Shown in pieces: positions 1,199 to 25,224 of a stretch of DNA of 29,889 bases. Origin of the DNA: an uncultured cyanobacterium. GTDB lineage: Bacteria; Cyanobacteriota; Cyanobacteriia; Cyanobacteriales; Microcystaceae. Within the stretch, counting starts at the first letter, position 1, and each line of letters begins with the position of its first letter. The translations under genes and the position numbers were made by a program. The stretch covers positions 1 to 29,889 of the forward strand of contig CAWEDJ010000034.1 in the NCBI GenBank assembly GCA_963807635.1, written 5' to 3'. The notes under the pieces were generated by a model that saw only the letters and a program-made list of their open reading frames with translations, had not been told where the DNA came from and did not search any database.

Positions 1199-1339
1199 TG
1201 GCACAAACGTTATAGAGAGCAGACAGTATTCTACAATCTTTAAGGTTACGTTGCGCCTATCATCCATAAAAATATTGTATAGATATTGTATAGCCATTTA
1301 AGATTATTGTAATTGAAACGATGGGCCAATCGCGGGGAA

Positions 1340-1618
1340 GTTGATTGAGTAACGGATTTTTTTAATCAAAAAGTTAGTATTTTGTCCACTATGGATGATC
1401 GCAATGGATTCGAAAACGTGATCGCTAACAATTTCGGCACTTTGAGCGGAGAGAACCGTAATAAAAATGTGAAAAAGAACGAAAATCGAAGCAGATGCTT
1501 GAATCTAATCGAATTTAGCTCCTTTGCCCGAAGAAATTTAAGTTTATCCGTTTTAGTCAGGACTTTACGACTAAAGCCTCGATAGACAAGCGTTAACAAG
1601 CTTTAAATTTCCTGACAA
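1340..1618 (-). pseudogene. Decayed internal duplicate of the COP23-domain gene at 3076..3861
   Basis: 1381-1445 matches 3321-3385 at 56/65 nt; translates IFITVLSAQSAEIVSDHVFESIAIIHSGQ vs IVLTIPPGQSAEMVRDRVFESIAIADSGQ; AATTTCCTGACAA shared at 1606 and 3520. Confidence 0.8.
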
Positions 1619-1677
1619 TTCTTGACAGAGTTCATACTTAGCTCATACTTAGTTCTCCGTTAGTTTCCATCAATAGC

Positions 1678-1754
1678 CAACTTTATGTCAACTTTATGTC
1701 AACTTTATGTCAACTTTATATTAGCTTTATATTAGCTTAACATAAACTTTATAT
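1678..1754. repeat. Seven tandem 11-bp units (CAACTTTATGT x3, CAACTTTATAT, TAGCTTTATAT, TAGCTTAACAT, AAACTTTATAT)
   Basis: Read directly; looser 11-bp periodicity also at 1629-1672 and 1272-1293. Confidence 0.9.
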
Positions 1755-2043
1755 TTGTCCCAAAAAAAGTCAATGGCTTGCAATCTTAGCCCCAAAACAA
1801 GATTTTTGATTTTTGTCAAATAGTCCAAAAGCATTGAACATAAAGGAATATCGCTTTATTAACAACGGGTTCAAGAATTGTGATTATCAATTGAGTTCAA
1901 TAAATCTTCTCGATCTCGTACTATTGTAAAATCAGGAAAAAGGTATTATTGTTACGTTGGAATTACTTAAGTGAATAAATTTTTAAACTGTTTTACAGGT
2001 ATTTCAAAAAATTCTCTATTAGAAAAATTCTGTATTAAATTTA

Positions 2044-8486: not shown

Positions 8487-9986
8487 ATGAGTCTTTGTAT
8501 TAATCCTGTTTGTTCCCAGCCGAATAATTCTGATATTCATCGGTTTTGTCAAGCCTGCGGTTCAGAATTAATTTTAATTAATCGCTATCGAGTGGTACGT
8601 TTACTCAGTGATAAAGGAGGATTTGCCAATACCTACGAAGTCCAAGAAAAAGAAACTTTAAAAGTGCTGAAAGTGCTAACCCACGATCATCCCCACGCGA
8701 TCGCGCTCTTTCAGCAAGAAGCTCAGGTTTTAAGTGAATTAAATCATCCAGGAATTCCCAAGGGAGAGGGCTATTTTACTTATTTTATAAGAAATAATCC
8801 AACACCCTTACATTGTCTGGTCATGGAAAAGATTGAAGGAGTTGATCTTGAAGAATATTTACATCAAAAGCAATATCAACCAATTGATCAAATCCTCGCT
8901 TTAGAGTGGCTAGAGCAATTAGCAAAAATTTTACATAAAGTCCATCATCATCATTTTTTTCATCGAGATATTAAACCTTCTAATATTATTTTAAAACCGA
9001 CGGGTCAATTAGTTTTAATTGATTTTGGAGCCGTTCGTCAAGTCACCCAAACCATTTTAGCAGGAGGGCAAAATACACGTTTATTTACGTCTGGTTACGC
9101 TCCTCCTGAGCAAGAAAAAGGCTATGCAGTTCAACAATCCGATTTTTTTGCCTTAGGGAGAACCTTTGTTTTTTTATTAACAGGAAAAGATCCTAATAGC
9201 TCGGATATCTATGATTTTCAGCATAACGAATTAAAATGGCGTAAATTAGCCCCTGAAATTGATCCTCAACTGGCAGATTTTATTGATTTGTTAATGGCCG
9301 ATAAGGTTAATCAGCGACCTGAAACCATCGATATTATTTTAAAAAATCTCAAAAAACTCACAAAAGACCTAAATAAACCTGTTAAACCTTTAACTACGCA
9401 AGTTAAGACCCAGGCAATTATTCCTAACAATTATGCGGGCTTTTGGTTACGCGTCCAGGCTGCGACATTAGATACGGTGATCGTTATGATTATTGCCGCG
9501 ATCGCAGGCAGTTTATTGATTAATCACCTGATGACAACTGGATTATTGATTCGCTTGGGAATGGGTATAACGTCTGAACATTTGATCTGGCCCATTGTGA
9601 TTGCATCGGGAATAGGAACAACAGTCTTGGGATATGTTATTCCCCTTATTTTAGGTATTTTTTGTCTCTTTAATCCCAGTTATTTTTTGCATCAATTTAG
9701 TTTACCATTGGTGGCTTTAGTATTAGGTATTTTAATCAAATGGTTATATTTTATTCTGCTTGAATCTTCTCCCCTCAAAGCTACTTTGGGCAAATTAATT
9801 ATGGGGCTAGTGGTCTGCGATCGCAACGGTCAGAGAATTTCTATGGGAATGGCAAATAAACGTTATTGGGCAAAATTATTATCAACCATGACCCTGTATA
9901 TTGGCTTTATGTTATCAGGATGGACAAAAAAGAAACGCGCCCTCCATGACATGATTGCTGACACTTTAATTATGAAAAAAGATTAA
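8487..9986 (+). CDS. Hanks-type Ser/Thr kinase with 4-Cys prefix and C-terminal RDD membrane domain
   Basis: CINPVC...FCQACG; HRDIKPSN, DFG, GYAPPEQ; YAGFWLR...ATLGK...KRALHDMIADT. Confidence 0.9.
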   Translation: MSLCINPVCSQPNNSDIHRFCQACGSELILINRYRVVRLLSDKGGFANTYEVQEKETLKVLKVLTHDHPHAIALFQQEAQVLSELNHPGIPKGEGYFTYFIRNNPTPLHCLVMEKIEGVDLEEYLHQKQYQPIDQILALEWLEQLAKILHKVHHHHFFHRDIKPSNIILKPTGQLVLIDFGAVRQVTQTILAGGQNTRLFTSGYAPPEQEKGYAVQQSDFFALGRTFVFLLTGKDPNSSDIYDFQHNELKWRKLAPEIDPQLADFIDLLMADKVNQRPETIDIILKNLKKLTKDLNKPVKPLTTQVKTQAIIPNNYAGFWLRVQAATLDTVIVMIIAAIAGSLLINHLMTTGLLIRLGMGITSEHLIWPIVIASGIGTTVLGYVIPLILGIFCLFNPSYFLHQFSLPLVALVLGILIKWLYFILLESSPLKATLGKLIMGLVVCDRNGQRISMGMANKRYWAKLLSTMTLYIGFMLSGWTKKKRALHDMIADTLIMKKD

Positions 9987-9994
9987 ATTTTAAA

Positions 9995-10066
9995 AGCTGG
10001 TGACGGGATTTGAACCTGCGACCGTCCGCTTACAAGGCGGGTGCTCTACCCCTGAGCTACACCAGC
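9995..10066 (-). tRNA. trnT: tRNA-Thr(UGU), intronless, CCA not encoded
   Basis: GCTGGTG TA GCTC AGGGGTA GAGC A CCCGC CT TGT AA GCGGA CGGTC GCAGG TTCAAAT CCCGT CACCAGC T cloverleaf. Confidence 0.95.
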
Positions 10067-10067
10067 A

Positions 10068-10472
10068 TTACCAATCAGTGAAGTCTCTAGCCCAAATCAC
10101 CTTTTTAATTTGGTTGTTTTTGGGTTTGGTCAGTCGAAGCTTAATGATGCTCCTTCCTATTTTACCAAGAAAGTCACTAGAAATAAAATAACATTGATCG
10201 GTTGTTTTATCATAAACAGCTATCCAATCAATATCCTCACTCGTATATTTGATTGTACCCCAATTGTTGGCAGAACGACACATTACAACAATGACATTTC
10301 CATCAGACTCGGTGTATTTGCATTGAACTCTTTCAAGATTTCCATGACGCAGAACGATTAAATCAAATCTCCAGTCTTCACCAAGAGGAAGTGCAACTTT
10401 ATAGCCTCTTTTAATAGATTCAGCTATGATAATAGCCTCTGCTAAGTCGCCCTTATGCTTTGTCTCTGCCAT
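10068..10472 (-). CDS. PD-(D/E)XK homing-endonuclease-like protein (I-Ssp6803I / group I intron-associated family), free-standing
   Basis: TKHKGDLAE, ALPLGEDWRFDLIV, RVQCK, Y-SEDIDWIAVYD, terminal W match the I-Ssp6803I pattern. Confidence 0.85.
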   Translation of the reverse strand: MAETKHKGDLAEAIIIAESIKRGYKVALPLGEDWRFDLIVLRHGNLERVQCKYTESDGNVIVVMCRSANNWGTIKYTSEDIDWIAVYDKTTDQCYFISSDFLGKIGRSIIKLRLTKPKNNQIKKVIWARDFTDW

Positions 10473-10478
10473 AGTGTG

Positions 10479-10507
10479 AGATTATCAAGACACGGTTTTG
10501 ATGTCAA
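10479..10507 (-). promoter_or_regulatory. Sigma70-type promoter TTGACA-17 bp-TAATCT with extended -10 TG; predicted TSS at about 10472
   Basis: rc sequence TTGACA tcaaaaccgtgtctTGa TAATCT cacact ATG. Confidence 0.75.
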
Positions 10508-10627
10508 CGCCTAAGCTTCGATTTACCTCAATAAGCTTTATAATCTAGGGCGGGTCGTCTAGTCCTGGTTACATTAATTTCAAAATATAAAACATAGACT
10601 CAATCCGTTACGGAAAGTCAGGGGTTT

Positions 10628-11275
10628 CTAGGTTCTATTACTTTCCATCGCCCAACGAGCCAATTCTGTTCGATTATGTAAATTGGTTTTGTTTAACATA
10701 TTCGAGACATGACTTTCAATAGTACGTTGACTAACATTGAGTTTTTCAGCAATTTCTCGGTTAGACATCCCCTGGGACACTAACTGAACCACTTTAATTT
10801 CCGTCGGCGTTAATTCCACTGTACTGGGAACATAGAGTCGAGTTCCATCTTCGGGAGGCTTATTGCCAAAACGCATTAAACGATTGGCTTGACGTAGGGA
10901 CGATTCGACCTGGGCAACCAATTCCTCTGGCTCAAAGGGTTTGACCATATAAACATCAGCCCCCGTACTCAGTCCCTTCACCCGATCCTGGCTTTGACCT
11001 TTTGCCGACAGAAACATGACTGGAATCCAGCTAATCCGAGGATCTTGACGTATTTTTTCGACTAGGGCATAACCATCCATTTCGGGCATCATAATATCGC
11101 AGATGATCATGTTCGGTGTATAGGAAACCAAAATTTCTAAGGCTTCTCTACCGTTTTCGGCTGTCTCTACCACATAGCCCTGAAACTCCAAATAATCTTT
11201 GACCAAGAGGATTAAATTGGGATCATCGTCAATCAGTAGAAGTTGATTATGGTCTTTTTGAGAATTATCTTTCAT
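10628..11275 (-). CDS. NarL/LuxR-family response regulator (OrrA-like)
   Basis: Receiver LLLIDDD...DIMMPEMDG...KPF; LuxR HTH GMSNREIA...VSQRTIESHVSN. Confidence 0.93.
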   Translation of the reverse strand: MKDNSQKDHNQLLLIDDDPNLILLVKDYLEFQGYVVETAENGREALEILVSYTPNMIICDIMMPEMDGYALVEKIRQDPRISWIPVMFLSAKGQSQDRVKGLSTGADVYMVKPFEPEELVAQVESSLRQANRLMRFGNKPPEDGTRLYVPSTVELTPTEIKVVQLVSQGMSNREIAEKLNVSQRTIESHVSNMLNKTNLHNRTELARWAMESNRT

Positions 11276-24042: not shown

Positions 24043-25224
24043 TAAGCTGTTGAGCATTTAAACTGCATTGACAGCGTTACCCTTGTTTTTTAGCTTCCGC
24101 CCCCAATTTATAACTAGCTCCCCCTCATTTAGTAATCGGTTAAGGAGTTCTTCTAGTTCTTCTATTGACTTAAATAGACGGTTTGCAATAAACTCTTTCG
24201 CTGAATGCCATACCAACTCTATTAAGTTATAGTCTGGACTATATTCTGGTAAAAACTCTATTATTAAATTCGGCATTTTCTCTTTTATTTTCTCTAGAAA
24301 CTCTTTCTTTTTATGAATACTTGCATTATCTAATATAACCAGTATTTTTCGCCCGTTAATTTCAAACTCTTCTATTTTATTACCATTTTCTGACCATTCT
24401 ATTTTTATGTCTTCATAAAACCCTTCCAACACTTTAAAGAAGTTTTCTCCTGTTCCTTTTTCTAGAAATTCTACTCGTGTTTTTTTATCTGAAAGTCTCA
24501 ATGCTCCCATTACATTTACTCTTCCTTTTCTTCTATTTCCCTTCACTTTCTTTCTTTTTCCTTTTTTGCTCCAATTTTTTCGTCTTAACACCCTCAAACC
24601 GAACCCAGATTCATCCCAAAACCATATCTGGAGACGCTCTGGCGACTCTTTTGCTATTTTTAAATATTTATCAAATTTTTCCTTAAATAGCTTTCTTTTC
24701 TCTGGGTCTTGGCTTTCTTCTAAGCTATATTTTGCCCAAATATACACATACTTTTTTGATTTTAATATTCTTCTTACTTGACTTCCACTTAACTTTATTC
24801 CTGTCTCTCTTTCTAAATATTTTGCTAATCTTTGTGCTGTCCATCTCCCAAATTCGTAACCTAATTCTTCGGGGTCTTTATCTATTACCTCCAAAAGTTT
24901 ATTAACATATTCTGGAGTCGCTTTTTGATAATTCCCTTCCATTCTTTTATCTTTTAGGCTTTCCAGGTTATTGGCATCTCCATGAACACACCAATAGGCT
25001 ATCTTTCTTAATGAGCATCCTACAAAATCTGCTATTTCTTGTTGAGTTTTACCATCATTTTGTAATAATAATATCAGGATTCTCTCCCTGATATCTGGAT
25101 GTTCATTATATTTCAGTTCGTTTTGTAGTTTCTGTTTTTCATCCGTTTTTAGATGATTTTTTACTGGCATGACTTTTCTCCTTTTTTACTTTCATTATAT
25201 GCTATTTAAATGACTAACAGCTTA
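24043..25224 (-). mobile_element. IS630-family element with TA target duplication
   Basis: TIR TAAGCTGTTGAGCATTTAAA vs rc TAAGCTGTTAGTCATTTAAA. Confidence 0.9.
24058..25170 (-). CDS. IS630 family transposase
   Basis: HTH, RWT, FWDESGF, LDNASIH, LPEYSPDYNLIELVW. Confidence 0.95.
   Translation of the reverse strand: MPVKNHLKTDEKQKLQNELKYNEHPDIRERILILLLQNDGKTQQEIADFVGCSLRKIAYWCVHGDANNLESLKDKRMEGNYQKATPEYVNKLLEVIDKDPEELGYEFGRWTAQRLAKYLERETGIKLSGSQVRRILKSKKYVYIWAKYSLEESQDPEKRKLFKEKFDKYLKIAKESPERLQIWFWDESGFGLRVLRRKNWSKKGKRKKVKGNRRKGRVNVMGALRLSDKKTRVEFLEKGTGENFFKVLEGFYEDIKIEWSENGNKIEEFEINGRKILVILDNASIHKKKEFLEKIKEKMPNLIIEFLPEYSPDYNLIELVWHSAKEFIANRLFKSIEELEELLNRLLNEGELVINWGRKLKNKGNAVNAV

Follow-up and report, generated by a model that had tools for sequence, protein, structure and literature searches.

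A nuclease gene abuts the sole tRNA-Thr(UGU) gene of the genome

The window analysed here is a stretch of 29,889 nucleotides (nt) from an uncultured cyanobacterium of the Microcystaceae (GenBank assembly GCA_963807635.1, contig CAWEDJ010000034.1, positions 1 to 29,889 of the forward strand). We compared the genome of the window (G000) with five other Snowella species representatives (G001–G005), and refer by L-numbers (L007–L132) to loci retrieved from genomes or metagenome contigs. On the minus strand of the window, a free-standing endonuclease gene of the PDDEXK_5 (I-Ssp6803I) family (10068–10472, 134 aa), taken from the list of open reading frames (ORFs) and assigned through PF11645, stands directly in front of a tRNA gene. 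Its stop codon, TAA (10070–10068), is followed by a single T (10067) and then by G+1 of tRNA-Thr(UGU) (9995–10066, minus strand), leaving a 1-nt gap between two genes on the same strand. The junction TAAT/GCTGG is the same in G001 and in metagenome contig L052. The tRNA was called by ARAGORN and by Rfam (RF00005, 64 bits), is intact and intron-less, and does not encode CCA. It is the sole Thr(UGU) gene among the 41 tRNAs found in the 94%-complete G000 genome and, since it is single-copy, it must be expressed.

Upstream of the ATG at 10472, the minus strand carries a candidate promoter that consists of the −35 hexamer TTGACA (10502–10507), a 17-nt spacer and the extended −10 TGa-TAATCT (10479–10487), followed by the 6 nt cacact. 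Promoter and ORF make up a cassette unit of 0.44 kb (10507–10068, minus strand). The −35 hexamer, read directly in the sequence, is kept in G001, where the counterpart promoter is TTGACA-17-TAATGT-6-ATG. No SD-like (Shine-Dalgarno-like) GGAG, GAGG or AGGA was found at −16 to −5 of the nuclease ATG, and a −10 that ends 6 nt 5' of the start codon predicts a leaderless mRNA. With both strands pooled, TTGACA-N17-TANNNT has two matches in the window versus 0.32 expected from shuffles; the other match is at 24068–24096 on the plus strand. The elements from which an earlier note on this DNA had set out, namely the TTGACA-17-TAATCT promoter, an ATG at 10472 lacking a Shine-Dalgarno sequence, a TAA 1 nt before G+1 and an intronless tRNA, are thus all in place.

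The 134-aa ORF matches PF11645 with an E-value of 2.4e-30 (105.8 bits; cut-off 26.1) over profile positions 2–136 of 138, and is the only match to this family in the G000 genome. Its best solved relative by sequence is I-Ssp6803I (PDB 2OST; E = 1.2e-7), to which it is ~25–29% identical. The AlphaFold2 model of the protein (pLDDT 93) has a predicted restriction-endonuclease-like fold resembling 2OST, and four 2OST chains rank top when this model is searched against the PDB with Foldseek (TM 0.62–0.72, E down to 6.3e-10). Residues D37, Q50 and K52, which we take to be catalytic, are unchanged across 37 aligned relatives and pair with the D...VQVK residues of 2OST, so that the D...QxK arrangement is kept. 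The dN/dS of the ORF between G000 and G001 is 0.093 at a dS of 0.80. These comparisons indicate that the window protein is an intact I-Ssp6803I-like nuclease whose gene is under strong purifying selection.

The reading of this gene as a nuclease without a ribozyme host also held. A permissive Rfam scan found no group I intron (RF00028) at the window locus at E ≤ 0.1, while the same scan located one beside the canonical ORFs in L035 (from G004) and L024, and none in L081 or L058. The space available at the window locus, 1 nt plus ~35 nt of flank, is too little for a ribozyme. The ORF lies outside any intron or intein, as is expected of a free-standing homing endonuclease and not of one encoded by a group I intron, and the window gene is a bare relative of the intron-borne enzyme. 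Both are linked to tRNA genes, although the tRNA is Thr(UGU) in the window and fMet for I-Ssp6803I, and the window ORF stands in front of an intact tRNA rather than inside it, with its own promoter abutting the ATG. The subfamily is also distinct, scoring 105 bits against PF11645 where full-length intron-borne members from the same order score 166–186. A protein search returned 218 relatives, mostly of 133–134 aa, 55–68% identical and almost all unnamed. A search of genome contigs with the window protein returned one locus, in a Snowella metagenome-assembled genome (85% identity). A phage vector for the nuclease was considered and found no support, as the phage and plasmid collections contain only distant relatives (≤36% identity). 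In the available portion of a survey of the PD-(D/E)XK superfamily, PF11645 features only as the I-Ssp6803I homing endonuclease family, with a patchy distribution (PMC3424549).

The locus is flanked upstream by a response regulator gene (Response_reg and GerE domains; 10628–11275, minus strand) and downstream by a convergent Ser/Thr kinase gene with an RDD domain (8487–9986, plus strand), which ends 8 nt from the tRNA 3' end. The regulator/trnT/kinase neighbourhood is kept throughout the family and order.

Occupied and empty alleles in Snowella

The cassette is present in two of the six Snowella species representatives, G000 and G001, with identical junctions (stop, T, tRNA). As the earlier note had predicted, relatives carry empty alleles with a promoter next to the tRNA: G002, G003 and G004 have ~90–115 nt from the regulator stop to the tRNA, and the flanks of G003 and G004 are 94–98% identical to those of G000 directly up to the indel. 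In G005, regulator and tRNA are on separate contigs. The G000 regulator is 95–97% identical to those of the empty G003 and G004 and 83% identical to that of the occupied G001. The 556 nt of extra DNA in the occupied allele (a 0.56-kb insert) hold the minus-strand 134-aa ORF and overlapping small frames that belong to no family; Pfam gives PF11645 only, and no tyrosine or serine recombinase was found in the insert. Occupied and empty alleles at one site in close relatives, with conserved flanks, are expected of genes that spread by intronless homing.

The native promoter of the tRNA, as seen in the empty alleles and also in the majority of other genera, has a conserved extended −10 (TGCTATTCT and variants) that ends 9–10 nt before G+1, and the native pre-tRNA would therefore be almost without a leader. 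Genes of the window subfamily are found in two of 89 genomes of the family, a third match being a canonical intron-type protein of 34% identity, and PF11645 proteins of any kind occur in 34 of 301 genomes sampled from the order. We also consulted Logan contigs from small shares of four environmental RNA-library runs, from which starts, ends and strand are not readable; they contain empty-type alleles plus pieces of the nuclease ORF.

In a comparison with L007–L021, the tRNA-Thr(UGU) of G000, G001, G003 and G004 departs at 8 of 72 positions from the type that prevails in the family; seven of these positions (27, 29, 31, 32, 39, 41 and 43) lie in the anticodon arm; two pairs are compensatory, and C27 faces A43. 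Among 21 listed tRNA-Thr(UGU) genes linked to a homing-endonuclease gene, only one other, in L091, has the resulting CCCGC...GCGG stem, and the L091 protein is the nearest non-Snowella relative on the protein tree described below (support 85, unstarred). The stem common to Snowella and L091 weakly hints at co-conversion from a donor. The variant stem was also considered as a mutation that might confer immunity; it is found alike in the occupied alleles, the empty alleles and the tRNA relic described below, and so does not separate occupied from empty.

Two further spacers between regulator and trnT drew our attention. The 642-nt gap (about 630) of G037 (L132, 241–872) was rejected as an occupied allele because the ORF in it, of 113 aa and on the opposite strand, is unrelated and not the nuclease. 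In L018, from G014 of another genus, the spacer (~1303–1429, minus strand) ends in ...NFLEW-stop, T, tRNA, like the window junction, and a 41-residue stretch with an internal stop aligns with the C-terminus of the window protein (24% identity, weak, E 0.2); this stretch may be the decayed remnant of an earlier occupant.

Nuclease genes of the subfamily dock on tRNA genes

The window locus is not an isolated case. A profile-guided scan of metagenome contigs, which have no taxonomy attached, yielded 80 loci; we ran ARAGORN on all of them and measured the distance to the tRNA from the stop codon of each ORF. The spacing between stop and tRNA singled out at the window recurs: a same-strand tRNA starts within 12 nt of the stop or overlaps it at 45 of the 80 loci, and lies 13–60 nt away at six more. 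Opposite-strand tRNAs are within 12 nt or overlapping at 11 loci and at 13–60 nt at two. No tRNA was found within 60 nt at eight loci with at least 100 nt of contig remaining and at four with less than 100 nt, and at the other four the contig ends ahead of the stop. A tRNA thus lies within 60 nt of the stop at 64 of the 76 metagenome loci that contain it. Near-duplicates are numerous among the 80 loci, so the counts are not independent, which tells against leaning on their size in favour of a mobile element. The partner tRNAs are Thr(UGU), Thr(CGU), Arg(UCU), Ala(UGC), Leu(UAG) and Gln(UUG), and three of the ORFs have internal stops. Direct adjacency to a tRNA gene is a trait of the whole subfamily.

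We built a protein tree from 64 proteins, dropping 16 redundant or truncated loci and adding the window protein and L022. The partners Arg(UCU), Ala(UGC), Thr(CGU) and Leu(UAG) each correspond to a supported clade, and the tRNA-species labels require 17 changes on the tree versus 42.6 in shuffles. Within the Ala clade, the orientation of the ORF relative to tRNA-Ala flips several times, and inherited synteny alone is therefore hard to maintain as an explanation.

The close approach of a −10 hexamer to the start codon also recurs, and with it both surveys proposed in the earlier note came out as its reading predicts. Using a search for TANNNT ending 4–9 nt 5' of the start codon, we found it at 22 of 51 loci, versus a mean of 3.25 at control offsets displaced 12–39 nt further upstream. 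At 11 of the 51 loci an SD-like motif is present instead of the abutting hexamer, and at none are both present together. In the Arg(UCU) group the start had been set one codon late in this survey, the real spacer being 6 nt: six of its eight loci have TTGACA or TTGACC, 17 nt and TAnnAT at 6 nt from the start codon (GTG in the case of L082), and the spacer is 10 nt in L084 and 8 nt in L089.

We found no description of PDDEXK_5 genes abutting tRNA genes in the open full-text literature, within which the original I-Ssp6803I papers were out of reach, nor anything there on promoter-abutting starts in PDDEXK_5 or on a bare ORF splitting a bacterial tRNA gene. The window is one instance of what is apparently a widespread and undescribed subfamily.

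Half-tRNA relics and the position of the break

Upstream of the cassette promoter, local alignment identified a putative decayed relic of the 5' part of tRNA-Thr (10547–10573, minus strand; letters ~5–33) that stops in the anticodon loop, at about tRNA position 33–34. It has 21 of 26 identities and scores 26, versus 13.7 ± 2.4 for shuffles, 4 of 2000 of which reached it. Collinear with it is a possible, weak relic of the end of the native tRNA promoter (10574–10597, minus strand), aligned to G003; the collinear alignment to the G003 promoter and tRNA scores 28 versus 16.4 ± 3.0 and was reached by 6 of 2000 shuffles, and the promoter part alone was not significant in the shuffle test. Together, relic and promoter end lie ~75–125 nt upstream of the ATG. 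A segment, B (10517–10539, minus strand), placed between this relic and the cassette promoter, aligns with the sequence right after the regulator stop in the empty G003 and G004 (20 of 23 identities; score 31 versus 15.8 ± 2.2, reached by 0 of 500 shuffles). We rejected the idea that TATTGAGGTAA is a dispersed repeat, as it gave 80 and 69 hits versus 68 and 78 for the reversed control; segment B is not a genome-wide repeat. A direct repeat, CCTAGA (10544–10549, minus strand), has its twin at the regulator stop (10632–10627), and the two copies bracket an extra segment of ~83 nt (10626–10544) with the relics, present in both G000 and G001. By these alignments, the occupied allele looks like a partial tandem duplication, from the regulator stop to the anticodon, with the cassette replacing the native promoter. 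The position of segment B and the bracketing CCTAGA copies therefore call for more than one simple event, or for aberrant repair.

The relatives offer sharper examples. In several of the eight Arg(UCU) loci, sequence resembling the D arm and 5' anticodon stem of tRNA-Arg extends to position 34, where the −35 hexamer directly follows; this relic is clearest in L081, L083, L077 and L082, being near-intact in L081 and more decayed in the others, and a CGGTTA-TTGAC junction is common to all eight loci. In L068, nhmmer found the 5' and 3' halves of a tRNA-Thr(UGU) flanking a bare ORF. When the 424 nt between T34 and G35 are deleted, ARAGORN reports a 76-nt tRNA-Thr(UGU), and it reports none in the unmodified locus; the end of the ORF, TGG TAA, uses G35-T36-A37-A38 of the anticodon loop. 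L058 has a similar, less clean arrangement, and in L063 and L064 the ORF runs through the tRNA 5' half and stops on T36-A37-A38. A mirror form is seen in L065, L088 and L091, where the ATG follows a full tRNA-Thr(UGU) at a distance of 39–44 nt and the stop codon contains the first letters of a 3' tRNA fragment or precedes them by ~10 nt. In all, L058, L068, L088, L091 and L065 have a 3' half relic that opens within the stop codon or shortly behind it, and the convergent L092 has a reversed 3' fragment of tRNA-Ala beyond its ORF.

The intron-borne relative in G004 (L035) is laid out comparably: exon 1 of tRNA-fMet stops within the anticodon loop, the ORF follows ~16–20 nt on, then the ribozyme core, and exon 2 resumes the loop. 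The bare ORFs of the relatives interrupt the anticodon loop with the same order of exon 1, short leader and ORF. Taken together, several lines of sequence evidence point to the anticodon loop, and not the tRNA 5' boundary, as the break point in the relatives.

Some of these results weigh against generalising this picture to the window and to every locus. The evidence for the window relic is modest (p about 0.002 in the alignments to shuffled sequence), and a one-step insertion does not explain the placement of segment B. Half-tRNA relics, which blastn-short found in 9 flanks and nhmmer in 12, are detectable in a minority of loci, so that they are real in some and not general; a pairwise test of each upstream region versus its own downstream tRNA was mostly negative. 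An in-silico excision scan gave a clean result in L068 only, with L058, L066 and L075 uninformative.

Two side observations concern these loci. In L058 (1463–1500), the 5' anticodon-stem strand of the split tRNA, GGAGG, is 5 nt away from the ATG that follows it, so that this remnant of the tRNA may have taken on the role of a Shine-Dalgarno sequence. G004, which is empty at trnT, carries the canonical I-Ssp6803I-type ORF and group I intron in tRNA-fMet (L035, 1501–2160 and 2273–2700), and this intron locus is ~110 nt upstream of the RNase P RNA gene.

A probable mobile cassette at an essential tRNA gene

The nuclease family, the alternation of occupied and empty alleles and the habits of the subfamily make it very probable that the window element is a mobile cassette derived from a homing endonuclease. 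More specifically, we favour the view that it is a free-standing, ribozyme-less cassette that targets tRNA anticodons and sits on the 5' side of tRNA-Thr(UGU) with the tRNA kept intact. On this model, enzymes of the subfamily would act, like I-Ssp6803I, on the anticodon stem-loop DNA of a tRNA gene, and the cassette would have arrived through a double-strand break in anticodon-loop DNA, the kind of site used by its intron-borne relatives. The old promoter and the old tRNA 5' half would have been left upstream to decay, and the settled form would rely on an intact tRNA copy right behind the ORF, not on splicing. Plain insertion, as in L068, would kill the tRNA gene and be tolerable in dispensable copies only; the forms that persist at essential genes would be those in which the ORF has a complete tRNA at one end and a half-tRNA relic at the opposite end. 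For the window itself, we consider the chances that the cassette entered via an anticodon-loop break with restoration of the tRNA to be about even, and we would tentatively lean against its still being active in homing.

Points against a recently mobile cassette come from the alleles themselves. The ORFs of G000 and G001 are 84.4% identical and their flanks 83.4% and 81.4%, a similar divergence that therefore fits long vertical residence as well as recent mobility, and by which gain in G000 versus loss in G003 and G004 is not decided. The tRNA is identical in G000, G001, G003 and G004 at 72 of 72 positions, the difference being confined to the 5' flank; the occupied allele would therefore have no immunity if the target lay entirely within the tRNA. 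Raised flank divergence, which would have pointed to a recombination tract brought in from elsewhere, was not seen at the locus.

A domesticated or stranded gene is an alternative that we regard as rather unlikely. It supposes a single old entry into Snowella, after which homing was lost and the gene was kept for its tRNA promoter or for host use, with G003 and G004 losing the cassette by recombination. Beyond the equal divergence of ORF and flanks and the low dN/dS sustained over a dS of 0.8, it is consistent with the single copy per genome, the decayed relic of the native promoter and the sameness of the tRNA in occupied and empty alleles, which offers no obvious difference between self and non-self targets. 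However, the clean indel between G000 and G003/G004, within flanks of such high identity, speaks for a recent short-patch gain or loss, and the intact, family-type promoter of the empty alleles cannot arise by deletion from the occupied allele. Within the subfamily, changes of orientation, split tRNAs and pseudogenes are also as expected for a mobile element.

Transcription of the nuclease ORF and the tRNA

A mobile cassette that has displaced the promoter of a single-copy tRNA would have to provide for its expression, and the tRNA would now depend on the cassette promoter or on read-through across the cassette. A scan listed no terminator and no two-hexamer promoter on the minus strand within the ORF. 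With the native promoter displaced, the nearest good promoter at the ATG and no terminator in between, an ORF–tRNA precursor is therefore the most economical arrangement. Transcription would start at or next to the A of the ATG, yield a leaderless mRNA and continue past the stop into the tRNA, because there is no room and no recognisable signal between the two. The ORF would then constitute the 5' leader of a pre-tRNA, and RNase P would part mRNA from tRNA at 10067/10066. From the sequence layout, we consider co-transcription of ORF and tRNA probable and leaderless translation of the nuclease somewhat favoured, and a leaderless ORF carried in a pre-tRNA leader is plausible.

A precedent for such a precursor is secG-leuU of Escherichia coli, an mRNA–tRNA co-transcript parted by RNase P at the tRNA 5' end. 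The window likewise has an ORF upstream of a tRNA, with co-transcription inferred; it differs in that the ORF is a mobile selfish gene, is probably leaderless and has its stop 1 nt from the cleavage site.

Several observations count against co-transcription from the cassette promoter. TAATCT agrees with TATAAT at 3 of 6 positions only (T1, A2 and T6), and because this falls below the threshold, a generic promoter scan omits the cassette promoter. Inside the ORF, two extended −10-like motifs are kept in G001: TGTTATTTT, which ends 118 nt before G+1, and TGGTAAAAT (TGGTAAAGT in G001), which ends 92 nt before G+1. A separate tRNA promoter inside the ORF could operate through either of them. Among the RNA-library contigs of the four runs, none spans 10066–10068, the uncovered parts being uninformative. 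A contig of run X2 covers 10403–10562, across the predicted transcription start; if it derives from RNA and not from carried-over DNA, it could reflect a start further upstream or read-through.

The internal motifs could belong to an arrangement in which the tRNA has its own promoter in the 3' third of the ORF, the ORF mRNA is separate and the tight spacing is a by-product of insertion. The retention of both motifs in both occupied alleles fits this, as does the opposite orientation of the tRNA at 13 of the 80 survey loci, which means that co-transcription is not a requirement of the family. We nevertheless judge it unlikely: both motifs lie in conserved coding sequence, where about one chance match is estimated per 405 AT-rich bases, the two-hexamer scan gave no minus-strand promoter within the ORF, and read-through from the upstream promoter would still yield ORF–tRNA precursors, as no terminator intervenes.

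Route of entry

The earlier note had placed the ORF between the tRNA's own promoter and the tRNA, which was not borne out. The corresponding scenario, which we consider quite improbable, is an exact insertion between the tRNA promoter and G+1, with the promoter/tRNA junction as the target and the upstream promoter as the captured tRNA promoter. It would account for the exactness of the right junction (stop, 1 nt, G+1) in G000, G001 and L052, a junction-spanning target would explain the immunity of the occupied allele, and both promoters are of the form TGn-TAnnnT at a similar distance to the next functional start. Yet the empty alleles use the different, TGCTATTCT-type promoter, with whose region the TTGACA-17-TAATCT region does not align, and the decayed copy of that native promoter end lies further upstream with the tRNA 5'-half relic. 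In the relatives it is the anticodon loop that is broken, and ORFs of this family are also found downstream of, or convergent with, tRNAs.

Integrase-type islands and prophages restore their target tRNA by carrying a copy of the tRNA end. Both they and the window cassette leave a functional tRNA and a displaced partial copy; in the window, however, there is no integrase, the duplicated piece is a 5' half broken in the anticodon loop rather than a 3' end, and the actor would be a homing-type nuclease.

That the protein acts on RNA, processing or cutting tRNA or pre-tRNA, with the linkage to tRNA genes functional and not selfish, is very improbable: tight linkage to particular tRNA species across the subfamily, strong purifying selection and the presence of tRNA-splicing endonucleases in the PD-(D/E)XK superfamily (stated in the available portion of PMC3424549) would suit it, but its nearest characterised relative is a DNA homing endonuclease, its distribution is patchy (two of 89 family genomes), and the half-tRNA relics, the split tRNA gene and the copies that have become pseudogenes are scars that a mobile element leaves in DNA.

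Two bolder readings extend the cassette model to the subfamily. One holds that these nuclease genes form a class of mobile element not yet described, which would break tRNA genes in the anticodon loop, carry or keep a replacement tRNA part and, through co-conversion, alter the anticodon stems of essential tRNAs; we put this slightly short of an even chance. The other, to which we give scarcely any credence, is that in L068-type loci the PDDEXK_5 protein itself excises its mRNA from the pre-tRNA and an RtcB-type ligase rejoins the halves. This would amount to a protein-dependent, ribozyme-free bacterial tRNA intron, of which the window form would be a second, splicing-free solution by the same element. 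The undescribed class is the less radical and more likely of the two.

Relation to known systems

To our knowledge, homing endonucleases have been thought able to occupy essential, conserved genes only when hidden by a self-splicing intron or intein. The subfamily suggests ribozyme-free routes into the anticodon-loop DNA of tRNA genes: an intact tRNA copy may be kept directly behind the ORF, with host RNase P doing the "splicing"; the ORF may follow a complete tRNA, the former 3' half remaining as a leftover; or, in dispensable copies, the tRNA gene may simply be split. If this is true, the window cassette would be a minimal, experimentally tractable selfish element of ~0.44 kb and its transcript a natural leaderless mRNA that RNase P trims at the 3' end, one base past the stop. 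It would also imply a mechanism that replaces the promoters and rewrites the anticodon stems of single-copy tRNA genes, and a pool of compact nucleases specific for tRNA genes (Thr-UGU, Thr-CGU, Arg-UCU, Ala-UGC and Leu-UAG), with a bearing on how intron-borne endonucleases and introns joined up.

Free-standing homing endonucleases and intronless homing are established, as set out in the available text of PMC3984707, and the window locus is a new architectural variant of this known kind of element. A close parallel is SegB of phage T4, a GIY-YIG enzyme that, in the part of its description available (PMC2330249), is encoded within the T4 tRNA gene cluster and has that cluster as its target. Both are free-standing nuclease genes in or next to tRNA genes that vary in presence between close relatives, and the expected mode of spread, in which the allele lacking the nuclease is broken and the flanks are co-converted, is alike. 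The window nuclease differs in its fold and in residing on a bacterial chromosome rather than in a phage. A stop codon 0–12 nt from the tRNA 5' end is the rule of its subfamily, and half-tRNA relics and a bare ORF splitting a tRNA do not figure in that part of the SegB description.

Long tRNA arrays of cyanobacteria have a conserved HNH endonuclease gene upstream, with which they are co-regulated, and its authors proposed that it helps to spread the array (available portion of PMC8421152). This gene and the window gene are both homing-type endonuclease genes tied to cyanobacterial tRNA genes. According to that portion of the source, though, the HNH gene has its own mapped promoter and neighbours an accessory array, whereas the window PDDEXK_5 gene abuts a single, essential housekeeping tRNA at 1 nt.

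Our searches also returned PDDEXK_5-like proteins from such arrays. Proteins of ~213–216 aa with a helix-turn-helix and a PDDEXK_5-like domain lie at the head of, or inside, cyanobacterial long tRNA arrays (L047, L046, L048, L049, L040 and L042). In L047, the ORF (1231–1872, plus strand) has its stop 1 nt before a tRNA-Asp at 1874, the first in an array of 10 tRNAs. Nuclease-linked tRNA-Thr genes were also listed for L059, L063, L064, L065, L070, L074, L076 and L091, and many array-borne, nuclease-linked tRNA-Thr(UGU) genes have odd D arms that lack the usual GCTCAG...GGTAGAGC motif.

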